Positions 51,226 through 60,543 of a stretch of 64,000 nt of DNA are shown piece after piece (the first letter of the stretch is position 1; every line of letters starts with the position of its first letter). Location of the stretch: positions 4,008 through 68,007 of the forward strand of contig DAIRGA010000022.1 in NCBI GenBank assembly GCA_036794825.1. The letters are read 5' to 3'. Source of the DNA: Bacteroidales bacterium (GTDB taxonomy: Bacteria; Bacteroidota; Bacteroidia; Bacteroidales; 4484-276). The notes below the pieces were generated by a model that saw nothing but the letters and a program-made list of their open reading frames with translations, was not told the DNA's origin and searched no databases. A program made the position numbers and the translations under genes.

Positions 51226-51558
51226 CTATGAGAATTGGCGGGCATTTTCCAGCAATTCGAATCCTGTCCTTTTTATTTCAACAACAAAAGGAATATCAGA
51301 TTGAAAATCCTCAAGAGAAATTGGATGTGGTTCAATCCGGCTATCAATTTGAGAAGCAAGCAGCATTAATTGAACCTGGGTATCAAAACGGTCAGAATCA
51401 GCTAGGTTTTTAAAAACTAATGCCAGATCAATATCGCTATCCTGATTATAGTTCCCCCTGGCATATGATCCAAAAAGATACACAGACTCAACATCAAGAT
51501 ACTTTCCCTTTATCAGTTTTACGAATTCTGTGATTGCTCTATCAACTGTTTTATCCAT
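51226..51558 (-). CDS. Nucleotidyltransferase-domain protein (MNT partner of a HEPN/MNT toxin-antitoxin pair)
   Basis: 110 aa with the pol-beta-type NTase motif LFGSYARGNYNQDSDIDLALV. Overlaps the upstream HEPN ORF by 40 nt. Confidence 0.8.
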   Translation of the reverse strand: MDKTVDRAITEFVKLIKGKYLDVESVYLFGSYARGNYNQDSDIDLALVFKNLADSDRFDTQVQLMLLASQIDSRIEPHPISLEDFQSDIPFVVEIKRTGFELLENARQFS

Positions 51559-51863
51559 TTTCTTAAATCTATTAGTTTCTCAATCCACTCAGTTGTAAAT
51601 TGCGAAGTACATCGCTGTTTAAAACTCAATTTATAATCATCATATCGGGCATTGATATTAAAAGCCGTAATAGTCACGAGTTGTTCTTTTATTATTTCAT
51701 CGCATTCCAAATCAGCTTTCTCAGCAAGCCTCAATAAATTATGAATGTAAGGTGGATAATCTGATTTTGCCTGTAAAAAATAGGCCTTCAGCAACTTCTC
51801 AAGCATTAAATGTCCGATGAATAGTGCCCAACTGTATCTTTTTGAATTGAACATATCCATCAT
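51519..51863 (-). CDS. HEPN-domain protein, 5'-truncated (missing about 25 N-terminal codons, which lie 9.1 kb upstream)
   Basis: MMDMFNSKRYSWALFIGHLMLEKLLKAYF...AFNINARYDDYK matches the Bacteroidota HEPN (PF05168-like) pattern, but begins inside helix 1. Homology continues 2 codons upstream (GAT ACT, to 51869) and then stops. Confidence 0.7.
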   Translation of the reverse strand: MMDMFNSKRYSWALFIGHLMLEKLLKAYFLQAKSDYPPYIHNLLRLAEKADLECDEIIKEQLVTITAFNINARYDDYKLSFKQRCTSQFTTEWIEKLIDLRKWIKQLIEQSQNS

Positions 51864-52248: not shown

Positions 52249-55200
52249 TTATTTCGTCATTTCGTATGCTATCATTTCAGCTTGTTTTAAAACAGTCTCA
52301 GTCGCTAACATTTGCATATCGGGCGGATAACCATATTTTCTTAAAAGCCTTTTTACGGCAACTTTCAATTTTGCTTTTACACTCTCTTTGATTGTCCAAT
52401 CTATGGATGCATTTTGTCTAATAGTTTCTGTCAGCACAATGGCAAGTTCTCTTAGTTTGTCTTGTTGCATGAGTTCTCTTGCACTGTCGTTGTTGGCTAC
52501 TGCTGTGTAAAAAGCATATTCAAAGTCTGTCAAACCCATGTGCCTGGCTTCACTGTCCATGTCAACAATTTCTTTGCTCAGGTTGATGAGTTCTTCAATT
52601 ACTTCGGCTGCTGTCAGAATCTTGTTGTGGTATTTTTTAATGGCATTTTCCAGCATTTCCATCAAAGACTTGCTTTTTACAAGATTCTTTTTGGCTCTCG
52701 ATTTTATTTCATCATTCAGGAGTTTTTTCAAAACTTCCAAGGCAATATTTTTATGTTCCATTCCTTTCAGCTCCAATAAGAATTCTTCTGAAAGAATTGA
52801 AATATCAGGTTTCTTTATTCCAGCTGCATCGAAAACGTCAATCACTTGTTCAGAAACCAATGCTTTGTCAATGACTTGCCGAATTGTGGTTTCAATTTCT
52901 TCGTCTGTTCTGCCTGAACCTGTTCCGTCAAATTTTGCCAATCGTGCTTTCACTGCCTGGAAAAACGAAACTTCATCTTTTGCATCCATTGCCTGGTCAT
53001 GAGGAATGGCAATGGCAAAGGCTTTTGAAAGTGCTGTTACTTCGTTGATGTAACGTTTCTTTCCATCTTCTAAACCTAAAATGTGTTCTTCTGCTGCAAG
53101 TATCAGCGACAATTTTTTTGAAGTGTCGGCTTCAAAATAGGTTTCATATTCAAAGCCATGATACATTTGAGAAACAACTTCCAACTTCTCTAACATCAAT
53201 TGAACGGCTTGCTCTTGTAAAATAGTTGGGTCGCCTTTGCCTCCGGAATCCGAATAAAATGCCAAGGCCTTTTTCAAGTCGGCTGCAATTCCTAAATAAT
53301 CTACAATCAAACCACCTGGCTTGTCTTTGTAAACCCTGTTTACACGGGCAATAGCCTGCATCAGATTATGTCCTTTCATTGGTTTATCAATGTATAGGGT
53401 GTGGAGGCATGGTGCGTCAAAACCTGTGAGCCACATATCCCGGACTATAACCAATTGCAGTTCGTCATCAGGATTTTTCATTCTTTCGGCAAGCGTTCTT
53501 CTTTGTTCTTTAGTGGTATGATGTTTTGAAATTTTCGGACCATCAGAAGAAGCGGAAGTCATGACCACTTTTATCACTCCTTTATTCAAATCGTCTGAAT
53601 GCCATTCAGGTTTCAGGTCAATAATTGCCTGATACAAATCCGCTGCAATTCTGCGGCTCATGGAAACAATCATTCCTTTTCCTTCAAACACCTCCTGTCT
53701 TTTGCTAAAATGTGCAATAATGTCTTTGGCAATATTCTTTATCCGATTCTCACTACCAACCAGGGCTTCCAATTGTGTCCATTTGGCTTTTGCCTTTTGT
53801 GTGTTGGTTAAATCTTCCTGTTCCAATTCACCATCCAGTTCCTCAACTAACCTTTTGCCCTCTTCGCTTAGGTTGACCTTTGCCAAGCGACTTTCGTAAT
53901 AAATGCGGACTGTTGCACCATCTTCAACGGCTTGGGCTATATCGTAAATGTCCACATAGTTTCCGAAAACCGCTGGCGTGTTTACATCTGTATTTTCAAT
54001 GGGTGTTCCTGTAAAGCCCAGATAGGTTGCATTTGGCAAAGCATCCCGCATATACTTGGCAAAACCGTAAACGATTTTTTTTCCAATTAAATTGCCGGCA
54101 TAATCTTTAGAATCAATGGTTTTGGCCTTAAAACCATATTGTGTTCTGTGTGCTTCGTCTGCAATAACAACTATGTTATTCCGATTAGAAAGCATTTCAT
54201 AAACATTGCCTTCTTCAGGTTGAAATTTTTGAATGGTGGTAAATACAACACCGCCCGAAGCTACTTTCAATAAGTCTTTTAATTGGTTTCTATCGTCTGC
54301 TTGAACTGGTTCTTGTCTTAGCAATTGTTTTGATGCTGCAAACGTATCAAACAGTTGGTCGTCCAAATCATTACGGTCTGTAATTACAAGTATGGTCGGA
54401 TTGTCTAAAACCAAAACGATTTTTCCTGTGTAGAAAACCATTGACAATGATTTTCCGCTTCCTTGTGTATGCCAGACTACTCCACCTTTTCTGTCGCCTA
54501 TAGGTTGATTTTTTACTCCGGGCACTCCATAGCTTTCAGGAGACTCCTGCACTAAATTCCCCTCCTCTGGAGCTGTACCCGATAGAGTGTGATGCTCCAT
54601 TCCCCTCCCCTGGAGGGGTGCCCGAAGGGCGGGGTGGTCAAAAAGCCTTTGCATTGTACTATATAGTTGATTCATCACATGTTCAACAGGAATATGAATT
54701 ACTGTCAAACCCAATGACTCCAGGTAGGCATCCCTCTGAGCATCATACTCTTCTTTGTCATCATGGCTGCTTCCATCTATTTCAATAACCACTTGACAAT
54801 TGCTGCAATAGAAATCTACAATGTAGTTTCCTATGATTTTTTGCCGGTCAAAATCAAATCCTTTGAATTGCTTATTCTTTACTTGATTCCAAAAAAGCAC
54901 TTCGGAGAGATTGCCTGCTTGGCGAAGTTTTCTTGCTCGTTCTTTGAGTTTGGGATTGTAAGGAAGTTCGAAGTAGTTTCTGCTGGCTCTTTTTACCACC
55001 CCGTCAGACTTCGTCTGCCACCCCTCCAATGGAGGGGAATTGAACCCCGATGCTCTCAAAGTGGATTCAACGGCTCGGTTTACAGCATAATATTGATGAT
55101 AAGCCGCCAATTTTTTTACTGTAGAAATGGTGGTAATACCCGTTACCGTATCTTCCTTTTTCGATTTTTCAAAAACAATAAAATGCCTGATTAAGTCAAT

Positions 55201-55965
55201 CAGGGTTTCTTTGTTCAACATGCCTTGAATTAACGTTTCTAACTGACTTACCAAATGCGATGCTTCAGCTTTACCGTCTGCCGATTTCCAAGCCATAAAG
55301 CGGCTAAATCCCGCAGAGATTGAACCTGCTTTGGCTTCCAGTCCATCAGAAATAACCACAAATCCGTTGTAAGTGAACAGACCTGGAATGATGGCTTTAT
55401 AGGTTTCTACTTGTTTGAAAGCAGAATTGATTGTGGTGTTCTCGTCCGCAGCATTTTTTAACTCAATAACCACCAACGGAATTCCATTGACAAATAAAAT
55501 TACATCAGGACGTTTGTTATTGCCGTTTTCAATGATGGTAAATTGGTTGGTTACGACAAATTCGTTGTTGTGTGGATTCTTAAAATCTATCAGCCAAACA
55601 CGGTCGCCCCTGTCGTCTCCATCAACACGTTTTGAAACAGGGATACCTTCGGTTAATAAACGATGAAAGATTTCATTGTTGGCAAGCAATTCAGGCGAAG
55701 CAATGCGTTGAATTTCTTTGATGGCTTCTGCCTGTGCATCGGATGGAATACTGCGATTAATTCTTTTGACGGCAGTTTGCAACCTGTTTACCAGCAAAAC
55801 CTGGGCGTAGCTCTCTCGGGTATCCTGACCACCCTGGCCTTCAGTCGCCAATCCCTGGGAGGTGAATTCGGGGGCAATATCGGGGGCATAGATGTACTCA
55901 TAGCCAAGTTGAGCGAGCAACTCAATGGCAAAGGTTTCTATTGTATGTTCAGTTATGGGTTTCAA
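52249..55965 (-). CDS. hsdR: Type I restriction enzyme R subunit (HsdR) with an in-frame DUF559 endonuclease-domain insertion
   Basis: 1238 aa. N-terminal PD-(D/E)xK region (PDVILFVNGIPLVVIELKN). Helicase motifs GGVVWHTQGSGKSLSM, VVIADEAHRTQYG, LGFTGTP and MQAIARVNR. C-terminal DUF3387-like tail. About 177 extra residues sit between TLRASG and GDRKGGVVWHTQ. Confidence 0.9.
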   Translation of the reverse strand: MKPITEHTIETFAIELLAQLGYEYIYAPDIAPEFTSQGLATEGQGGQDTRESYAQVLLVNRLQTAVKRINRSIPSDAQAEAIKEIQRIASPELLANNEIFHRLLTEGIPVSKRVDGDDRGDRVWLIDFKNPHNNEFVVTNQFTIIENGNNKRPDVILFVNGIPLVVIELKNAADENTTINSAFKQVETYKAIIPGLFTYNGFVVISDGLEAKAGSISAGFSRFMAWKSADGKAEASHLVSQLETLIQGMLNKETLIDLIRHFIVFEKSKKEDTVTGITTISTVKKLAAYHQYYAVNRAVESTLRASGFNSPPLEGWQTKSDGVVKRASRNYFELPYNPKLKERARKLRQAGNLSEVLFWNQVKNKQFKGFDFDRQKIIGNYIVDFYCSNCQVVIEIDGSSHDDKEEYDAQRDAYLESLGLTVIHIPVEHVMNQLYSTMQRLFDHPALRAPLQGRGMEHHTLSGTAPEEGNLVQESPESYGVPGVKNQPIGDRKGGVVWHTQGSGKSLSMVFYTGKIVLVLDNPTILVITDRNDLDDQLFDTFAASKQLLRQEPVQADDRNQLKDLLKVASGGVVFTTIQKFQPEEGNVYEMLSNRNNIVVIADEAHRTQYGFKAKTIDSKDYAGNLIGKKIVYGFAKYMRDALPNATYLGFTGTPIENTDVNTPAVFGNYVDIYDIAQAVEDGATVRIYYESRLAKVNLSEEGKRLVEELDGELEQEDLTNTQKAKAKWTQLEALVGSENRIKNIAKDIIAHFSKRQEVFEGKGMIVSMSRRIAADLYQAIIDLKPEWHSDDLNKGVIKVVMTSASSDGPKISKHHTTKEQRRTLAERMKNPDDELQLVIVRDMWLTGFDAPCLHTLYIDKPMKGHNLMQAIARVNRVYKDKPGGLIVDYLGIAADLKKALAFYSDSGGKGDPTILQEQAVQLMLEKLEVVSQMYHGFEYETYFEADTSKKLSLILAAEEHILGLEDGKKRYINEVTALSKAFAIAIPHDQAMDAKDEVSFFQAVKARLAKFDGTGSGRTDEEIETTIRQVIDKALVSEQVIDVFDAAGIKKPDISILSEEFLLELKGMEHKNIALEVLKKLLNDEIKSRAKKNLVKSKSLMEMLENAIKKYHNKILTAAEVIEELINLSKEIVDMDSEARHMGLTDFEYAFYTAVANNDSARELMQQDKLRELAIVLTETIRQNASIDWTIKESVKAKLKVAVKRLLRKYGYPPDMQMLATETVLKQAEMIAYEMTK
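54520..55050 (-). mobile_element. DUF559 (Vsr-like PD-(D/E)xK endonuclease) cassette with ~50-bp double-hairpin terminal inverted repeats, inserted in frame in hsdR
   Basis: Encoded segment: LPYNPKLKERARKLRQAGNLSEVLFWNQVKNKQFKGFDFDRQKIIGNYIVDFYCSNCQVVIEIDGSSHDD...RDAYLESLGLTVIHIP, the DUF559 pattern. TIRs are at 54599-54645 (attcccctcccctggaggggtgcccgaagggcggggtggtcaaaaag) and 54989-55040 (reverse complement attcccctccattggaggggtggcagacgaagtctgacggggtggtaaaaag). An extra half copy lies at 54555-54572. Confidence 0.75.
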
Positions 55966-56579
55966 TTACTGTTTACTATATCTGTGATTCCTTGCCAGAA
56001 AATTTGAAAACTTGTTGATCTGTTTCTTAATGGTTCCATGTAAACAGATATGTTTCTGGCTAGTTCGGTTTTTCTTATTCCATGCTTGTAATAACCTTTA
56101 GACTTCAATAGTCTTTCAAATGCTTCACATGTTCCTCCTTCAATTTGATCGGGAACACGAAATTGTGCTTTTTTATGAAAGTTAGCAGAAACTCTTGGGT
56201 ATGCTGCACTGACTGCTTCGGGGTCGCCAAAATACCACGATTCGAGTTCTTCTATGGCAATCCTGTTCATAACTGTAAAAGTCATCTCGCCTTCTGCTTC
56301 TGATTTTGTTATTAAGCCTGCTCCATTTGCACAACTTTCAAGATATTTCTTCAGTTCGTGGCAGTCCTGATTATCCCGGTCAACGAGCACAACTATTTTA
56401 AAATCTTGCGTTATCCAATTTTTATAGGCACGAAGCTCCATTTTCAGCTTCTTTAATAAATCCTGTTTACCCTGAAAGGTAATAATCTTATAAGTATGCT
56501 CGCCGGTGATGAGTTTTGGCAGCAAATTGTGCAATGCCATTTCTGCAGAAAGTTCTTCAACCAAAAATTCCAGATGCAT
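55962..56579 (-). CDS. DUF4276-family protein (Toprim-like fold suspected), partner of the upstream ATPase
   Basis: 205 aa. MHLEFLVEELSAE (N-terminal acidic E motif), KIVVLVDRDNQD (DxD-type motif) and RIAIEELESWYFGD match my recollection of the DUF4276 pattern. The start is 1 nt after the ATPase stop; the stop overlaps the hsdR ATG by 4 nt. Confidence 0.65.
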   Translation of the reverse strand: MHLEFLVEELSAEMALHNLLPKLITGEHTYKIITFQGKQDLLKKLKMELRAYKNWITQDFKIVVLVDRDNQDCHELKKYLESCANGAGLITKSEAEGEMTFTVMNRIAIEELESWYFGDPEAVSAAYPRVSANFHKKAQFRVPDQIEGGTCEAFERLLKSKGYYKHGIRKTELARNISVYMEPLRNRSTSFQIFWQGITDIVNSN

Positions 56580-56580
56580 T

Positions 56581-57804
56581 TTATCTCTTTTTGGGATTAA
56601 ATTTTAAACTACCCTGATTAACAAGCGGATCGCCTACCTCGAAGTGCCCTTCTACCCACAAATTTCCCAATACAGCTCCCTCACTCACAAAATCATTGAT
56701 CCCACTCATAGCTGCCGCACATTTTGCGTTTGTATAACCCTTCTCATCCCTGTATAAAACCCAAAGTTCATCAGGCTTCAATCCATTTACAAAAAAAGGA
56801 GAGTGCGTTGTAACCATGAGTTGTGAAGTCTCTGCTGATGCTCTGCATTCTTCTGATAATTCAGGCAATAAACGTGGGTGAAGTTGATTTTCCGGTTCTT
56901 CAATTCCTATTAATTGGGGTGGCTCAGGATCATACAAAACAGTGAGGTAAGCCAACAATTTTAAGGTTCCATCTGAAGCAAATTTTGACAAGACCGGACG
57001 CTCAAATGGAGCATCCTTTAATTGCAACAGCAGTCTTCCATCCTGCATAAGCTCTGTTTCAACTCTTTCGAGACGGGGTACTCTTTCGGCAAGAATCCTC
57101 AGGATTTTCCCCAAACGTTCAGGATGTTGTTCTTTAAGGAATTGGATCACATTCGGAAGGTTATCGCCCGTTGCGGAAAGACGTTCCTGCGGGCCGGCTT
57201 CAGTGATTCCACGTGTTTGATCGGCGGTGAGGTACGACAAGTACCAGCCTGTAATAAATCTACGAAGCGCAATCACCCTCGGATGCTTTGATAGTTGCCC
57301 AAGCGTGTTTACTGCCAACATCTCGGAACTGTCAAGCGATTCCTCTATTCTTTGGTCTGAAATATCGGGAGATTCCCCCGTGATTACTCTTCCGACACCT
57401 TTTGCAAAGTCCAGAAATGCGAAAGGTCTCCCTGCCGGGCTTCTTTTCCACAATAATCTTTCGCTTGCTACAAATGGCCCTTTGTTGTTTTCATCAATCT
57501 TAAGCTCATAGGTAATAAGCGGTGATTTTGGGGTTTCCCTGTATTTTATCTCAAACTCAATGGGGCCGGTGCATCCGCGTGTGCGCAATTCTTTAAAACG
57601 GCCCCGCTTATCCCATGCTTTACGCAAGCCTACGGAGAAGCACTCGCTTAGGAATGCGAAAACATCAAACACCGTTGATTTTCCACTGCCGTTCGGTCCT
57701 AAAAAAACCGTAAGCGGCTTGATATTTTTAAGTTCAAGGTTTTGAAGCGCCCTGTAATTCTGGACGCGCAAATACTCAATTCTGGGAACAGCTTTTTCTC
57801 TCAT
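56581..57804 (-). CDS. ABC/SMC-type AAA ATPase (AAA_21/AAA_15-like) of OLD/AriA/RloA-like defence ATPases
   Basis: 407 aa. Walker [12 protein letters not shown], signature-like [11 protein letters not shown], Walker [16 protein letters not shown]-loop VTTHSP. No fused nuclease domain. Confidence 0.8.
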
Positions 57805-57832: not shown

Positions 57833-58972
57833 TTAACTATTCATTTCCACCCTCACCTCCCCACTCATCAACTTCGGCAACAAGTTATCACGCAATGATG
57901 TGAGGGTGCGGATTTGGGTTTGGTTGGATTTGATTTTTTTCAAAGTTGCCTCACACCAATCAATGGTATTATTTAATATTTTTTCTGATGGCACGCTGAT
58001 TTTCAAATCTTTTATTTGGTCAAAAGTTATCTGAGGAAAAGTACCACTTCTTGACTCAGCTATCATTTGCAACCAATCTACTGTAGATGAATTTGTTAAA
58101 TAGAAATATACGAACGCTTGGCTAACTACTTTTTTTGACCTTAATACCATTAGTTTTGTTGACACTACATAATTATCAGCATCAAACTCAATATAAGCCC
58201 ATCTTCCATTTGCTGGTCTAATTTCACTAAATAAAATGTCGTCTTTTTGAATGGATTTCTTTGCTTGACCAGGTAATCCCTTTACATCCGAAGGATTGTG
58301 CTCAAGAACATTTCCTAAGTAAATATCAGAAGTATTTAAAAATACTATTGTTGGATAGGGAAACTTGTGGGTAATAGAAACGGTTTCTATCAAGTCTCCT
58401 AAATTAAGTTGATATTCCCACTCCTCCTTCGCTTCCTCCACAAACCACTGCCTAAACAGGGTTTCGGCCATTTTTTCCAAGGTGGCGTTTTGGCGGTGCA
58501 GCAGGTCTATTTTGTCGTCTAAACTGCTGAGGACGGAGGCAATAGCGGTTTGTTCTTTTTCATTAGAAGGAAGAAAAAAGGGAATAGATGTCAGTGCTGC
58601 TTTATTTAACTTTGGCTGAACAGCACCCGTTAAAAATGGATTCAAATCAAGATTTTGCATATAATAAACTATCAATTTATTATGAAAATCTTTCTTCCCT
58701 TTAACAATATGAGCATGATTGTTTACCCAAAATTGACCACTTGCAACGAAGGCAATTGGTGTATTTCTGGATTTTAAATTCTCTCCATCTTCCGAGATTA
58801 ATACATGATCTCCATCAAAAATATAATCGTTTACATAATCAATAATGCCTGAGGCACCATAATATGGAAAGTCACCCTTTTTCTTTGCTCTCTCCATTGA
58901 GCTGAGAGGAATTCTTCTGTGATTAAGAATTTCCGCAAAATCTTCGATTGAATATTCCTTCCACTCACTCAT
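57833..58972 (-). CDS. hsdS: Type I restriction enzyme specificity subunit (HsdS)
   Basis: 379 aa. Two target-recognition halves separated by conserved helices ([40 protein letters not shown] and C-terminal [22 protein letters not shown]). Confidence 0.9.
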
Positions 58973-59107
58973 TAACTTTAATCTTTAAAAGGTTAGCGGA
59001 AATGACTTCATTGAGTTGGGCTTCTTCTTTCAATTGTGCTTCCAACTCTGCTTTTAAACTGGCAAAGCGTTCCGCAAAATTGAAGTCGTCTTCTTCATCG
59101 AGTAAAA
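58965..59107 (-). pseudogene. hsdM: Out-of-frame C-terminal tail of hsdM (44 codons) created by a +1 frameshift in a T4 (A4 on + strand) run
   Basis: In the -1-shifted frame the sequence reads (G)[46 protein letters not shown], the normal acidic/coiled-coil HsdM tail. Its stop (58967-58965) overlaps the hsdS ATG (58972-58970) in the usual coupled arrangement. Deleting one A from aaaa at 59104-59107 restores a 525-aa HsdM. Confidence 0.75.
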
Positions 59108-60543
59108 CCTACATATCTACCCGGTGTAAGCACATAGTCCAATTCTTTTACTTTGCTAAGAGGGGCAGAAGCACAAAAGCCCGCAACGTCTTCATACTTG
59201 CCATCAAGGTTTCTCCAATTGTGGTAAGTGCTGGTAATTTTATCAATGTCTTCCTGAGAAAGTTCACGGGTTCTGCGGTTTATCAAATGCCCTAAGTTTC
59301 GGGCATCAATAAATAATATTTCGTTGCTGCGGTCTCTATGACCACCCCGCCCTGCGGGCACCCCTCCAGTGGAGGGGAATTGGGAGCCCTTGCGGTTACG
59401 GCTCATAAACCATAAGGCAGCAGGAATTTGTGTATTTAAAAACAACTTGGCAGGCAGGTTTACAATGCAATCAATCAAGCCATTTTCAACCAAAGCTTTT
59501 CTTATGTCGCCTTCGCCTGAGGTTTTAGAAGTCAATGCACCTTTTGCCAATACCACACCTGCTTGTCCGCTAGGTGCTAAATGGTAAATGAAATGTTGCA
59601 TCCAGGCAAAGTTGGCGTTGCCTGTTGGTGGAGTTCCGTATTGCCAACGACCATCGGTTCGCATTAAGTCACCGCCCCAATCACTCACATTGAACGGTGG
59701 ATTGGCAATGATGTAATCGGCTTTCAGGTCTTTGTGTGCATCGTTTAAAAAAGAACCTTCGTTGTTCCATTTCACTTGTGAGCTGTCAATACCACGAATA
59801 GCCAGGTTCATTTTAGCCAATCGCCAGGTGGTTTGGTTGCTCTCTTGTCCGTAAATGGAAATGTCGTTTACTTTTCCCTGGTGTTCGGTTACAAATTTTT
59901 CGGAGTGAACAAACATACCACCCGAACCGCAACAAGGGTCAAATACCCGTCCTTTATATGGCTCCAGCATTTCAACCAATAATTCCACAACGCTTCTTGG
60001 CGTATAGAACTGTCCGCCTTTCTTGCCTTCTGCAAGGGCAAACTCACCCAGGAAATATTCAAAAACGTGTCCGAGCACATCGGCACTTCTTGCTTTGGCA
60101 TCGCCTAAGGCAATGTTTCCAACCAGGTCAATGAGTTCACCCAAACTGGTCGGGTCCAGATTTTGTCGGGCAAATACTTTGGGTAGAACACCTTTTAGGG
60201 AATTGTTTTCTACTTCAATAGCATCCATTGCGGCATCAACTGTGATGCCTATTGTAGGTTGTTTTGCATGTGATTGCAGAAACTTCCAGCGGGCAGATGG
60301 CGGAACAAAGAATACATTTTCAGCTTTGTATTCGTCTTTGTCTTCGGGGTCAGCTCCGTTTTCTTCGTCTGCTTTTAGTCTTGCATACAATTCTTCAAAA
60401 GCATCAGAGATGTATTTCAGGAAGATTAACCCCAAAACAATATGCTTGTATTCGGCAGCATCTATGTTCTTGCGGAGTTTGTCCGCAGCTTTCCAGAGTT
60501 GTTTTTCTAAAGGTTCTTCTGTTGTTGCTTTTTGTTTAGCCAT
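59095..60543 (-). CDS. hsdM: Type I restriction enzyme methyltransferase subunit (HsdM), C-terminally truncated by frameshift and carrying a 47-nt in-frame repeat insertion
   Basis: 482 aa. N-terminal HsdM_N (LWKAADKLR...[13 protein letters not shown]), AdoMet motif [11 protein letters not shown], catalytic IIANPPFN. Ends abruptly at PGRYVGFTR*. Confidence 0.9.
59334..59380 (-). repeat. Solo copy of the double-hairpin element that flanks the DUF559 cassette, translated in frame within hsdM (…[14 protein letters not shown]…)
   Basis: The reverse complement, attcccctccactggaggggtgcccgcagggcggggtggtcatagag, matches the 54599-54645 repeat at 43 of 47 positions. Hairpins are CCCCTCC-ac-TGGAGGGG and GCCC-gca-GGGC. 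Confidence 0.8.

Follow-up and report, generated by a model that had tools for sequence, protein, structure and literature searches.

The window analysed in this study is a stretch of 64,000 nucleotides (nt) from a Bacteroidales bacterium (contig DAIRGA010000022.1), and its minus strand carries a Type I restriction-modification (RM) operon in which hsdR, the gene for the restriction subunit, contains a second nuclease (Table 1). The protein has the parts by which a Type I HsdR is recognised, namely an N-terminal PD-(D/E)xK nuclease, a superfamily 2 (SF2) motor, a C-terminal helical domain and an operon shared with hsdM and hsdS; its Pfam domains are HSDR_N at amino acids (aa) 4-219, DUF559 at aa 339-440 and SWI2_SNF2 at aa 490-717, together with ResIII, T1R_D3-like and T1RH-like_C. 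An insert separates HSDR_N from the SF2 motor; it lies ~25 residues before helicase motif I and reads, in HsdR sense, as a copy of a ~45-nt double-hairpin element (EL), the DUF559 segment, an inverted EL and a decayed EL. Our reading is that this insert is probably a copy of a widespread family of compact selfish nuclease cassettes, read through as a translated domain insertion.

Table 1. Features of the hsdR cassette, of the EL copies and of the surrounding RM island; positions are those of the window
Feature	Position	Strand	Basis
hsdR, Type I restriction subunit, 1238 aa, host of the cassette	52249-55965	minus	single open reading frame; Pfam
Complete in-frame insert as compared with insert-free HsdR alleles, 487 nt	54555-55041	minus	DNA and protein alignment with L001, L002 and L125
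Left (5') EL, "long" type: AATT-CCCCTCC-ATT-GGAGGGG-TGG-CAGAC-GAA-GTCTG-AC-GGGGTGGT; translated NSPPLEGWQTKSDGVV	54995-55041	minus	DNA fold -11.2 kcal/mol, z -3.5
DUF559/Vsr-like nuclease coding segment (Pfam domain 54646-54951)	54639-54994	minus	Pfam, PDB match
Right inner EL, "short" type, inverted with respect to the left EL: CATT-CCCCTCC-CCT-GGAGGGG-T-GCCC-GAA-GGGC-GGGGTGGT	54598-54638	plus	DNA fold -11.4 kcal/mol
Right outer EL, decayed tandem copy, both hairpins broken, 1-nt indel shifting the frame; translated HHTLSGTAPEEGN	54555-54594	plus	direct repeats, 2-mismatch match, alignment with L124
Decayed EL in frame at HsdR aa 33-46, EFTSQGLATEGQGG	55828-55868	minus	sequence and homologue alignment, columns 33-127
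Intact solo EL in frame in hsdM	59341-59381	minus	DNA fold -12.9 kcal/mol, z -3.1
hsdM	59095-60543	minus	91% identical to the N6_Mtase gene of L001
hsdS	57833-58972	minus	gene neighbourhood of the island
AAA_15/AAA_21 ATPase (407 aa) and DUF4276 protein (205 aa), between hsdS and hsdR	55962-57804	minus	Pfam, PADLOC
HEPN domain protein overlapping an MNT-like nucleotidyltransferase gene, directly downstream of hsdR	51226-51863	minus	nucleotidyltransferase matches PADLOC PDC-S09

The original prediction, made from the letters of the window, had described an in-frame DUF559 cassette inside HsdR and proposed an alignment to close homologues as the way to find its exact ends. Such an alignment recovered insert-free alleles of 1074 aa (P0096, P0108 and others; as DNA L001, L002 and L125) and set the ends given in Table 1. 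Where the insert-free alleles read RATGF-TVEHETPLSM-VMESPESYG the window reads RASGF-insert-VQESPESYG, the insert replacing the ~30 nt that code for TVEHETPLSM. From RASGF to GDRKGG the window protein has 181 aa and the insert-free homologues 28 aa, a net gain of 153 aa (~163 aa gained and ~10 aa lost) where about 177 extra residues had been estimated. The right-hand repeat arm seen at the outset is real, but the insert does not end with it: a decayed second EL copy outside the arm carries it on to 54555. That the DUF559 segment is in frame and co-oriented with its host is borne out by the open reading frame and by Pfam. Target-site duplications are absent at both of the insertions that could be compared with insert-free alleles, the HsdR cassette and a solo EL in hsdM.

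EL consists of AATT, hairpin 1 (CCCCTCC-NNN-GGAGGGG, a 7-bp CCCCTCC/GGAGGGG stem with a 3-nt loop), a T, hairpin 2 (a short G+C stem with a three-base loop) and GGGGTGGT. A search for inverted repeats paired 54596-54625 with 55014-55043 (30 nt, 83% complementary) and 54630-54643 with 54990-55003 (14 nt, 93% complementary); this search and DNA folding agree with the prediction that inverted double-hairpin repeats bound the DUF559 segment, and also with its remark that hairpin 2 differs between the arms (CAGAC-GAA-GTCTG as against GCCC-GAA-GGGC). Folded as DNA, intact ELs yield both hairpins at -11.2 to -12.9 kcal/mol (z -2.1 to -3.5), while the right outer EL gave no significant DNA fold. Two copies had been counted at first; both stand, and three more can be added, namely the decayed right outer copy, a decayed copy at the HsdR N-terminus and the intact copy in hsdM. 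In the window the hairpin-1 motif alone is matched 7 times, at 4 sites, where shuffles would lead one to expect 0.11 matches; the decayed copy at 55828-55868 falls outside these four.

Each of the additional copies can be set against homologues. The reading of the right outer EL given in Table 1 is in the frame usual among them, and at the site of HsdR aa 33-46 homologues have either an intact EFPSxGGVPEGRGG or tandem arrays, where insert-free alleles read HDGENP. The solo EL of hsdM is missing from a 91%-identical HsdM; here 11 nt of the insert-free allele have given way to 50 nt, 39 nt more in all. The translation of EL varies with its orientation and frame: it reads NSPPxEGW....GVV, (E)FPSxGGV..RGG or, in reverse, HPALxGTPPxEGN. 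The element is G+C-rich and has almost no stop codons in any of its six frames, and the cassette will therefore give a continuous frame provided that it lies in sense orientation and has a length that is a multiple of three.

The identification of the inserted segment as DUF559, which had been made by eye, is upheld by a profile match (PF04480) with an E value of 5.4e-30 and 103.9 bits against a cut-off of 20.6, covering positions 2-103 of the 109 in the profile. Among solved structures PDB 3HRL, a Neisseria "endonuclease-like protein", comes closest (E 8e-15). In an alignment of 33 rows, 3 of them without the insert, the residues D384, E395, D397, G398 and H401 fall in columns that are at least 90% conserved, and the columns of the VDF...ExDGxxH motif are also conserved in 100 HsdR-embedded and ~130 other DUF559 copies. 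The D/E/D residues singled out for checking in the original prediction are thus intact, and a catalytic role for them may be assumed from the family. Stand-alone copies start with Met directly after the left EL (MRxxxNYxxLPYN), and the right EL codes for the C-terminal HPAL...EGN tail of the DUF559 protein. The cassette of the window starts with Lys where stand-alone copies have Met; a Met stands at this position in 11 of 14 stand-alone copies but in 0 of the 100 HsdR-embedded ones, of which 61 have Lys there and 21 Tyr. Lacking a start codon, the cassette would be translated along with the rest of HsdR. An AlphaFold model of HsdR residues 1-760 shows DUF559 as the sole confident region, with a predicted local distance difference test (pLDDT) score of 70-86, and the EL-coded flanks at less than 45; the mean pLDDT of the model is 45, from a shallow and uniform alignment, so that only the contrast between DUF559 and linker is usable and the place of the insert on the HsdR surface is unreadable. 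Most likely, to judge from this model, the cassette would form an independently folded nuclease domain tethered by EL-coded Pro/Gly-rich linkers.

A segment of this kind might alternatively be removed after transcription, either from the mRNA as an intron would be or from the protein as an intein would be. The inverted ends could pair in RNA, and Vsr-like homing endonucleases do occur in group I introns, inteins and fractured genes (PMC2677866, PMC3239194). We give this explanation next to no credence. Pfam finds no intein or Hint domain in the insert, only DUF559 and a sub-threshold MTES_1575; the junctions, GF/NSPP and EEGN/LVQE, offer no Cys, Ser or Thr on the downstream side; and an Rfam scan of 54300-55300 gave a best E value of 0.31, every match being far under its gathering score. 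Moreover the frame is open through ~160 codons plus very variable flanks in 100 homologues and the start codon has been lost, neither of which would be needed were the segment taken out.

EL is by no means confined to this locus; a repeat unique to it was an outcome that the original prediction had named as one that would undo it. A pattern scan of one genome per species placed EL, with at least 22 fixed bases, in at least 120 stretches from Cyanobacteria, Firmicutes, Bacteroidota, alpha-, beta-, gamma- and deltaproteobacteria, Chlorobi, Planctomycetes, Fibrobacteres, Lentisphaerae, Armatimonadetes, Anaerolineae and others; the counts of EL copies and dimers that follow come from the stretches listed. 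Of the 120 EL loci listed, 17 have a DUF559 gene that belongs to the same subfamily. In 14 of the 15 cases checked among these loci the gene lies immediately next to an EL, always with the same orientation towards it, and 9 have ELs on both sides; the architecture of the cassette is EL (forward), DUF559 gene, EL (reverse). Only 35 of 154 listed EL copies are spanned by an open reading frame extending at least 60 codons to each side, as compared to 334 of 590 random positions; the other 119 lie outside. Solo and paired ELs, in other words, are mostly found outside long reading frames, and among the matches listed the forms without a gene (solo, or in pairs 30-50 nt apart) far outnumber the form that bears one.

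ELs also occur as inverted dimers whose hairpin-1 ends adjoin. There are 17 of these EL-/EL+ dimers among the matches listed, and 7 of the 17 are perfect long palindromes that include the hairpin-1 loops. Examples are L004 (1478-1579), L011 (5143-5234), L051, L079, L108 and L052, the last with three copies. The dimers typically join a copy with a "long" hairpin 2 to one with a "short" hairpin 2 and are equal to the junction of a right with a left cassette end; in L052 they stand on both sides of the DUF559 gene.

Hairpin 2 is kept as a structure. With the EL consensus drawn from 188 copies and the hairpin-2 statistics from 189, a perfect hairpin-2 stem of at least 4 bp is present in 157 of 189 copies against 14 of 189 after shuffling, and these stems have 42 different sequences. 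The earlier suggestion that hairpin 2 is selected as a structure and not as a sequence, which had rested on two copies, is confirmed by this larger set. Most loops read C(GAA)G, C(GTA)G, C(GCA)G or C(AAA)G. Triloops of the C(GNA)G form are a hallmark of unusually stable DNA mini-hairpins, reportedly described by Hirao and colleagues in the 1990s. In EL the C(GNA)G loops are on one strand only, which is the top strand at one end of a cassette and the bottom strand at the other, and ELs within reading frames show no bias in orientation (21 in the same direction as the frame and 14 opposite). Because the strand with the GNA loop is opposite at the two cassette ends and the intragenic ELs are unbiased, we favour the view that the EL hairpins would act at the level of DNA, either single-stranded or in cruciform state, rather than in mRNA.

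The nuclease domain is not confined to HsdR either. With the insert as query, a search of 1.8 billion representative proteins gave 114 matches at E <=1e-30 and 5129 at E <=1e-10, many of them embedded in larger proteins. By Pfam the hosts include HsdS, Type ISP and Type IIG enzymes, an N6_N4 methylase (Type III-like), QueA, fumarase, Mur ligases, a class-V aminotransferase and iPGM. The cassettes of HsdS sit in the conserved regions between the target-recognition domains, and in these host proteins the embedded domains have EL-type peptides on both sides. A QueA of 520 aa (P0126) contains two cassettes, an intact N-terminal one and a decaying C-terminal one in which an internal deletion has removed the GNYIVDFYC motif. 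In a Type IIG-like protein of 1214 aa (P0252) a more distant DUF559 subfamily occurs twice in frame, flanked by other repeats (units of ALRERGLGDH and LPSPREGVGEGSGVRAE); DUF559 with flanking repeats may, on this pattern, be a general theme with several repeat families. Plasmid collections held 8 matches, all of them distant (<40% identity), and 2.9 million viral contigs held 13 EL matches; with numbers as low as these the element is not mainly plasmid- or phage-borne.

Comparison of HsdR alleles was made on the best 120 homologues, ranked by score, a ranking that favours cassette-bearing proteins and leaves distant insert-free alleles unsampled. Most of the 120 have DUF559 (1214-1462 aa, 67-90% identity), and forms of 1074-1085 aa are without it. 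In all 100 of the cassette-bearing HsdRs that could be anchored, down to ~75% identity, the cassette is at the identical site and always has flanking repeats. The original prediction would have fallen had every close homologue shared the segment without such repeats; insert-free alleles do exist, yet it is also true that a whole clade shares the site, and a reading as a recent private insertion has to be given up. Insert-free and cassette-bearing alleles reach 98.7% identity in core protein (P0009/P0108) but only ~90% in DNA, and as this is the closest pair, the presence/absence differences would not be very recent events. A tree of the HsdR core, tried as a means of telling gain from loss, placed insert-free alleles among cassette-bearing ones and was set aside on account of the ranking bias and of weak topology at 94-99% protein identity.

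The flanks of the cassette are very variable: upstream the tandem ELs number from one to ten, in either forward frame, and downstream from one to three, and their number and reading frame differ even between close alleles. ELs or EL arrays are found at other sites in HsdR homologues as well. In P0054-P0074 and P0099 DUF559 is preceded by as many as ten EL units arranged head to tail (NSPSLKGWHQPAADDGVV repeated), and arrays of FPSSGGVPAAGGRGGI are present at the HsdR N-terminus of the same proteins, which are up to 1462 aa long. In one homologue (P0104) a GIY-YIG domain of ~90 aa (PF01541) is inserted in frame into the same linker, 8 residues downstream of the DUF559 cassette (alignment columns 803-896); this arrangement suggests that selfish nuclease genes of different kinds can settle in the HsdR linker. 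The HsdR protein is 94-99% identical among many contigs named Bacteroidia, Vicingaceae, Saprospirales, Gammaproteobacteria and "Nostoc", with ~50% of synonymous sites different (P0001-P0120). Isolates of Flagellimonas, Paraflavitalea and Pleomorphovibrio marinus are the sources of three of the homologues (P0051, P0038 and P0090). Conservation of the protein in the face of such synonymous divergence implies that HsdR is under very strong purifying selection, and the operon has probably spread widely by horizontal transfer. Databases name these HsdRs "R subunit/very-short-patch-repair endonuclease", and since such annotations name both parts, the fusion has apparently been seen before but not explained.

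Host gene and cassette differ in their divergence. We made codon alignments of four close cassette-bearing alleles (the window, L124, L126 and L141), using a 118-codon DUF559 core. Over the six allele pairs the proportion of synonymous differences (pS) is 0.46-0.52 in HsdR but 0.69-0.77, near saturation, in the DUF559 core, and of 2000 HsdR blocks of the same length placed at random not one had a pS as high as that of the cassette (three pairs, among the window, L124 and L126). HsdR pairs that are <3% apart in core protein differ by up to 25% in DUF559, the distances in core and cassette having a Spearman correlation of 0.43. The DUF559 of a Type III-like methylase (P0122, P0123, L076) is 82-83% identical to that of the window, which puts it among the HsdR-embedded ones. 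Since synonymous divergence is near saturation in the cassette but not in HsdR, the simplest reading is that the two would have separate histories, with cassettes acquired or replaced independently of the descent of the gene. Presence or absence at a fixed site together with a decoupled history is what is expected of a homing endonuclease gene, and the cassette at this site has probably been exchanged or re-acquired between HsdR alleles while being absent from others, in a cycle resembling the gain, spread and loss of homing elements.

Selection acts on both partners. Between cassette-bearing alleles the ratio of nonsynonymous to synonymous differences (pN/pS) is ~0.15 in the cassette and ~0.06 in the flanking HsdR. 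The first value, together with the conserved VDF...ExDGxxH motif, shows that the cassette protein is under purifying selection and that its nuclease is maintained; strong purifying selection on HsdR indicates in turn that its function is maintained and that the insertion is tolerated.

These same data could be taken to mean that DUF559 has been domesticated, as a useful second nuclease or DNA-recognition module of RM enzymes that persists for making restriction better or different, and that the repeats are leftover flexible linkers; the original prediction had likewise named a new activity of HsdR as its alternative. Several observations weigh against a selfish cassette, and some of them in favour of this alternative. 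One site in all 100 HsdRs, down to ~75% identity, with catalytic-type residues kept throughout at a pN/pS of ~0.15, also fits a useful domain that has long been retained. The embedded cassettes found through the exact EL pattern are, 6 of 6, in RM genes (Types I, ISP, IIG and III-like), which could mean function and not parasitism, and HsdS and HsdM are carriers too. No movement was observed and no near-identical copies were found at different loci, nor did the allele comparison yield a filled/empty pair nearly identical in DNA, the closest being ~90% identical in nucleotides. The raised pS of the cassette might, in principle, come from a mutation rate that is higher in this part of the gene; the placing of insert-free among cassette-bearing alleles in the tree is biased by hit ranking; and no target-site duplication of fixed length was seen at the two insertions, where replacement of 11-30 nt fits no known transposition chemistry.

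We nevertheless regard domestication as unlikely. Relatives with the same flanking peptides are present in QueA, fumarase, Mur ligases, an aminotransferase and iPGM, and in none of these is a use for a nuclease obvious. Close HsdR alleles do without the cassette and its synonymous divergence is decoupled from that of the host gene. The hairpins are kept as DNA structure with compensatory changes, for which linker peptides have no need, and stand-alone copies and solo ELs are mostly intergenic, with a cassette in decay in QueA. The idea of a selfish in-frame cassette put forward in the original prediction has thus gained support from the wide spread of EL, from insert-free alleles, from decoupled divergence and from the same peptides in unrelated proteins; the mobility of the cassette is something that we infer by comparison of sequences.

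Inverted repeats flanking a coding segment also bring to mind an invertible switch, in which recombination between the inverted ELs would flip the cassette, stop HsdR and so make restriction phase-variable. A simulated inversion does lead to a stop after ~330 aa, and in the screen of Milman et al. (PMC9881135) "DUF559 domain-containing protein" is one of the families with the strongest enrichment for predicted targets of programmed inversion. Yet no recombinase was found among the genes neighbouring the RM island, every HsdR copy seen is in sense orientation, and a metagenome scan gave 0 inverted arrangements, although its forward control gave only 5 and the scan thus had little power. A switch would furthermore leave purifying selection on DUF559, stand-alone cassettes and solo ELs unexplained, and we consider it very improbable.

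How a selfish cassette of this type might move can be sketched, and we put the sketch forward tentatively, as a mechanism that could easily prove mistaken in its specifics. The nuclease would recognise or cut EL DNA in its hairpin or cruciform state. Repair of the break would then use another EL-bearing locus as template, the ELs providing homology arms or ends, and the nuclease gene might thereby move between EL sites and between alleles. ELs probably spread alone too, giving solo copies, tandem arrays and palindromic dimers. New sites may arise occasionally by imprecise break repair that replaces a few target bases, and this would account for the 11-30 replaced target bases and the missing target duplications. 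Going further, it is conceivable, if somewhat doubtful, that DUF559 nucleases in general are the mobilising enzymes of these pan-bacterial double-hairpin repeats, the two together making up an unrecognised class of autonomous elements that have hairpin or cruciform DNA ends and are translated straight through in RM and housekeeping genes.

The cassette shares features with several known systems. Rickettsia palindromic elements (RPEs), said to have been reported by Ogata et al. in 2000 as repeats of ~100-150 bp that are found only in Rickettsia and have no protein of their own, are also palindromic repeats translated in frame and present in intergenic DNA as well; we know of no enzyme that mobilises them. 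The original prediction had drawn this parallel, and it holds for the in-frame translated repeat (the solo EL of hsdM, the 35 of 154 listed EL copies within long reading frames and the tandem EL peptides) but not for the nuclease gene. Going by the description of RPEs, EL differs in being ~45 nt long, in occurring in many phyla and in having a full form that holds a nuclease gene between inverted copies.

Repetitive extragenic palindromic (REP) elements, their inverted pairs (REPINs) and the REP-associated tyrosine transposases (RAYTs), reportedly described by Nunvar in 2010 and by Bertels and Rainey in 2011, offer a second parallel. RAYTs are HUH/Y1 enzymes related to the TnpA of IS200/IS605, usually single-copy and extragenic. 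Common to the two systems are dispersed short G+C-rich hairpins that are mostly intergenic, inverted dimers and a small enzyme gene flanked by inverted repeats. The gene of the cassette, however, encodes a PD-(D/E)xK DUF559 nuclease and not an HUH/Y1 enzyme, and EL has two hairpins with fixed AATT and GGGGTGGT ends and lies also inside reading frames.

With regard to the nuclease itself, Vsr, DUF559 and DUF2726 have been placed in one nuclease group (PMC3424549, which cites PDB 1cw0, 3hrl and 3r3p), and Vsr-like (EDxHD) homing endonucleases, e.g., I-Bth0305I, and "fractured gene" endonucleases have been described (PMC3239194, PMC2677866). These belong to the same nuclease branch and are likewise selfish genes in conserved genes, with presence or absence at a fixed site and a history separate from that of the host. 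They differ in that they sit in group I introns, inteins or genes fractured by split inteins, where the host is restored by splicing; the DUF559 cassette is read through, has no intron or intein, has inverted hairpin ends and occupies many unrelated sites. Inteins with a homing endonuclease resemble it as in-frame, co-oriented nuclease segments of conserved proteins, sporadic among alleles, but the cassette has neither a Hint domain nor splice-junction residues and the insert presumably stays in the product. With miniature inverted-repeat transposable elements (MITEs) and transposons bounded by terminal inverted repeats it shares such repeats and short derivatives without an open reading frame that outnumber the form with one; it is unlike them in having no target-site duplication (11-30 nt being replaced) and no DDE or other known transposase.

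Taken in turn as an intein, a group I or II intron, a RAYT system and a classical transposon with terminal inverted repeats, the cassette fails on the Hint domain and junction residues, on Rfam, on the HUH/Y1 gene and on the target-site duplication, respectively. In the literature searched, which leaves out most subscription journals, we found no published description of a hairpin-ended DUF559 cassette or of its residence in reading frames. The family apparently combines features of a homing endonuclease gene, of REP-type repeats and of RPE-like in-frame insertion, and is apparently undescribed.

As to its setting, the RM island spans 51.2-60.6 kb on the minus strand, contains hsdM, hsdS, a candidate defence pair, hsdR and a HEPN/nucleotidyltransferase pair, and is bordered by pgi on one side and by a PAS histidine kinase/LytTR regulator pair on the other. 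The ATPase and the DUF4276 protein match the PADLOC candidate defence pair HEC-01A/B (E 1e-168 and 3e-85), and other alleles of the operon have different cargo between hsdS and hsdR, such as Abi_C, GmrSD or another ATPase. The HEPN and nucleotidyltransferase genes probably form a toxin-antitoxin pair. A frameshift appears to lie close to the 3' end of hsdM (59095-59110 and 58973-59094, minus strand), caused by one extra base in a T run, which reads GGTTTTACTCG in the window as compared to GGCTTACCCG in L001; the hsdM reading frame consequently stops at 482 aa, and the last ~45 codons (...KVNE) run on in another frame to the start of hsdS. This may be either a sequencing error or an early decay of the restriction system.

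If DUF559 nucleases do mobilise these repeats, DUF559, a very large family without an assigned function, would gain a first role, and its tight tie across phyla to a specific structured DNA repeat yields a concrete hypothesis for work at the bench. Many short palindromic repeats, RPEs and several MITE-like families among them, have no known mobiliser, and in the cassette a repeat is physically joined to a candidate enzyme. For practical purposes, HsdR, HsdS, methylase, QueA, fumarase and Mur-ligase genes that are of odd length or appear as a "fused Vsr" may hold such a cassette, for which the peptides NSPPxEGW..GVV, FPSxGGV..RGG and HPALxGTPPxEGN can serve as markers. Besides RNA splicing and protein splicing there could be a third route by which selfish nuclease genes enter essential genes, that of staying in frame as a tethered extra domain, and read-through insertion of this kind is a possible route to new multidomain proteins.

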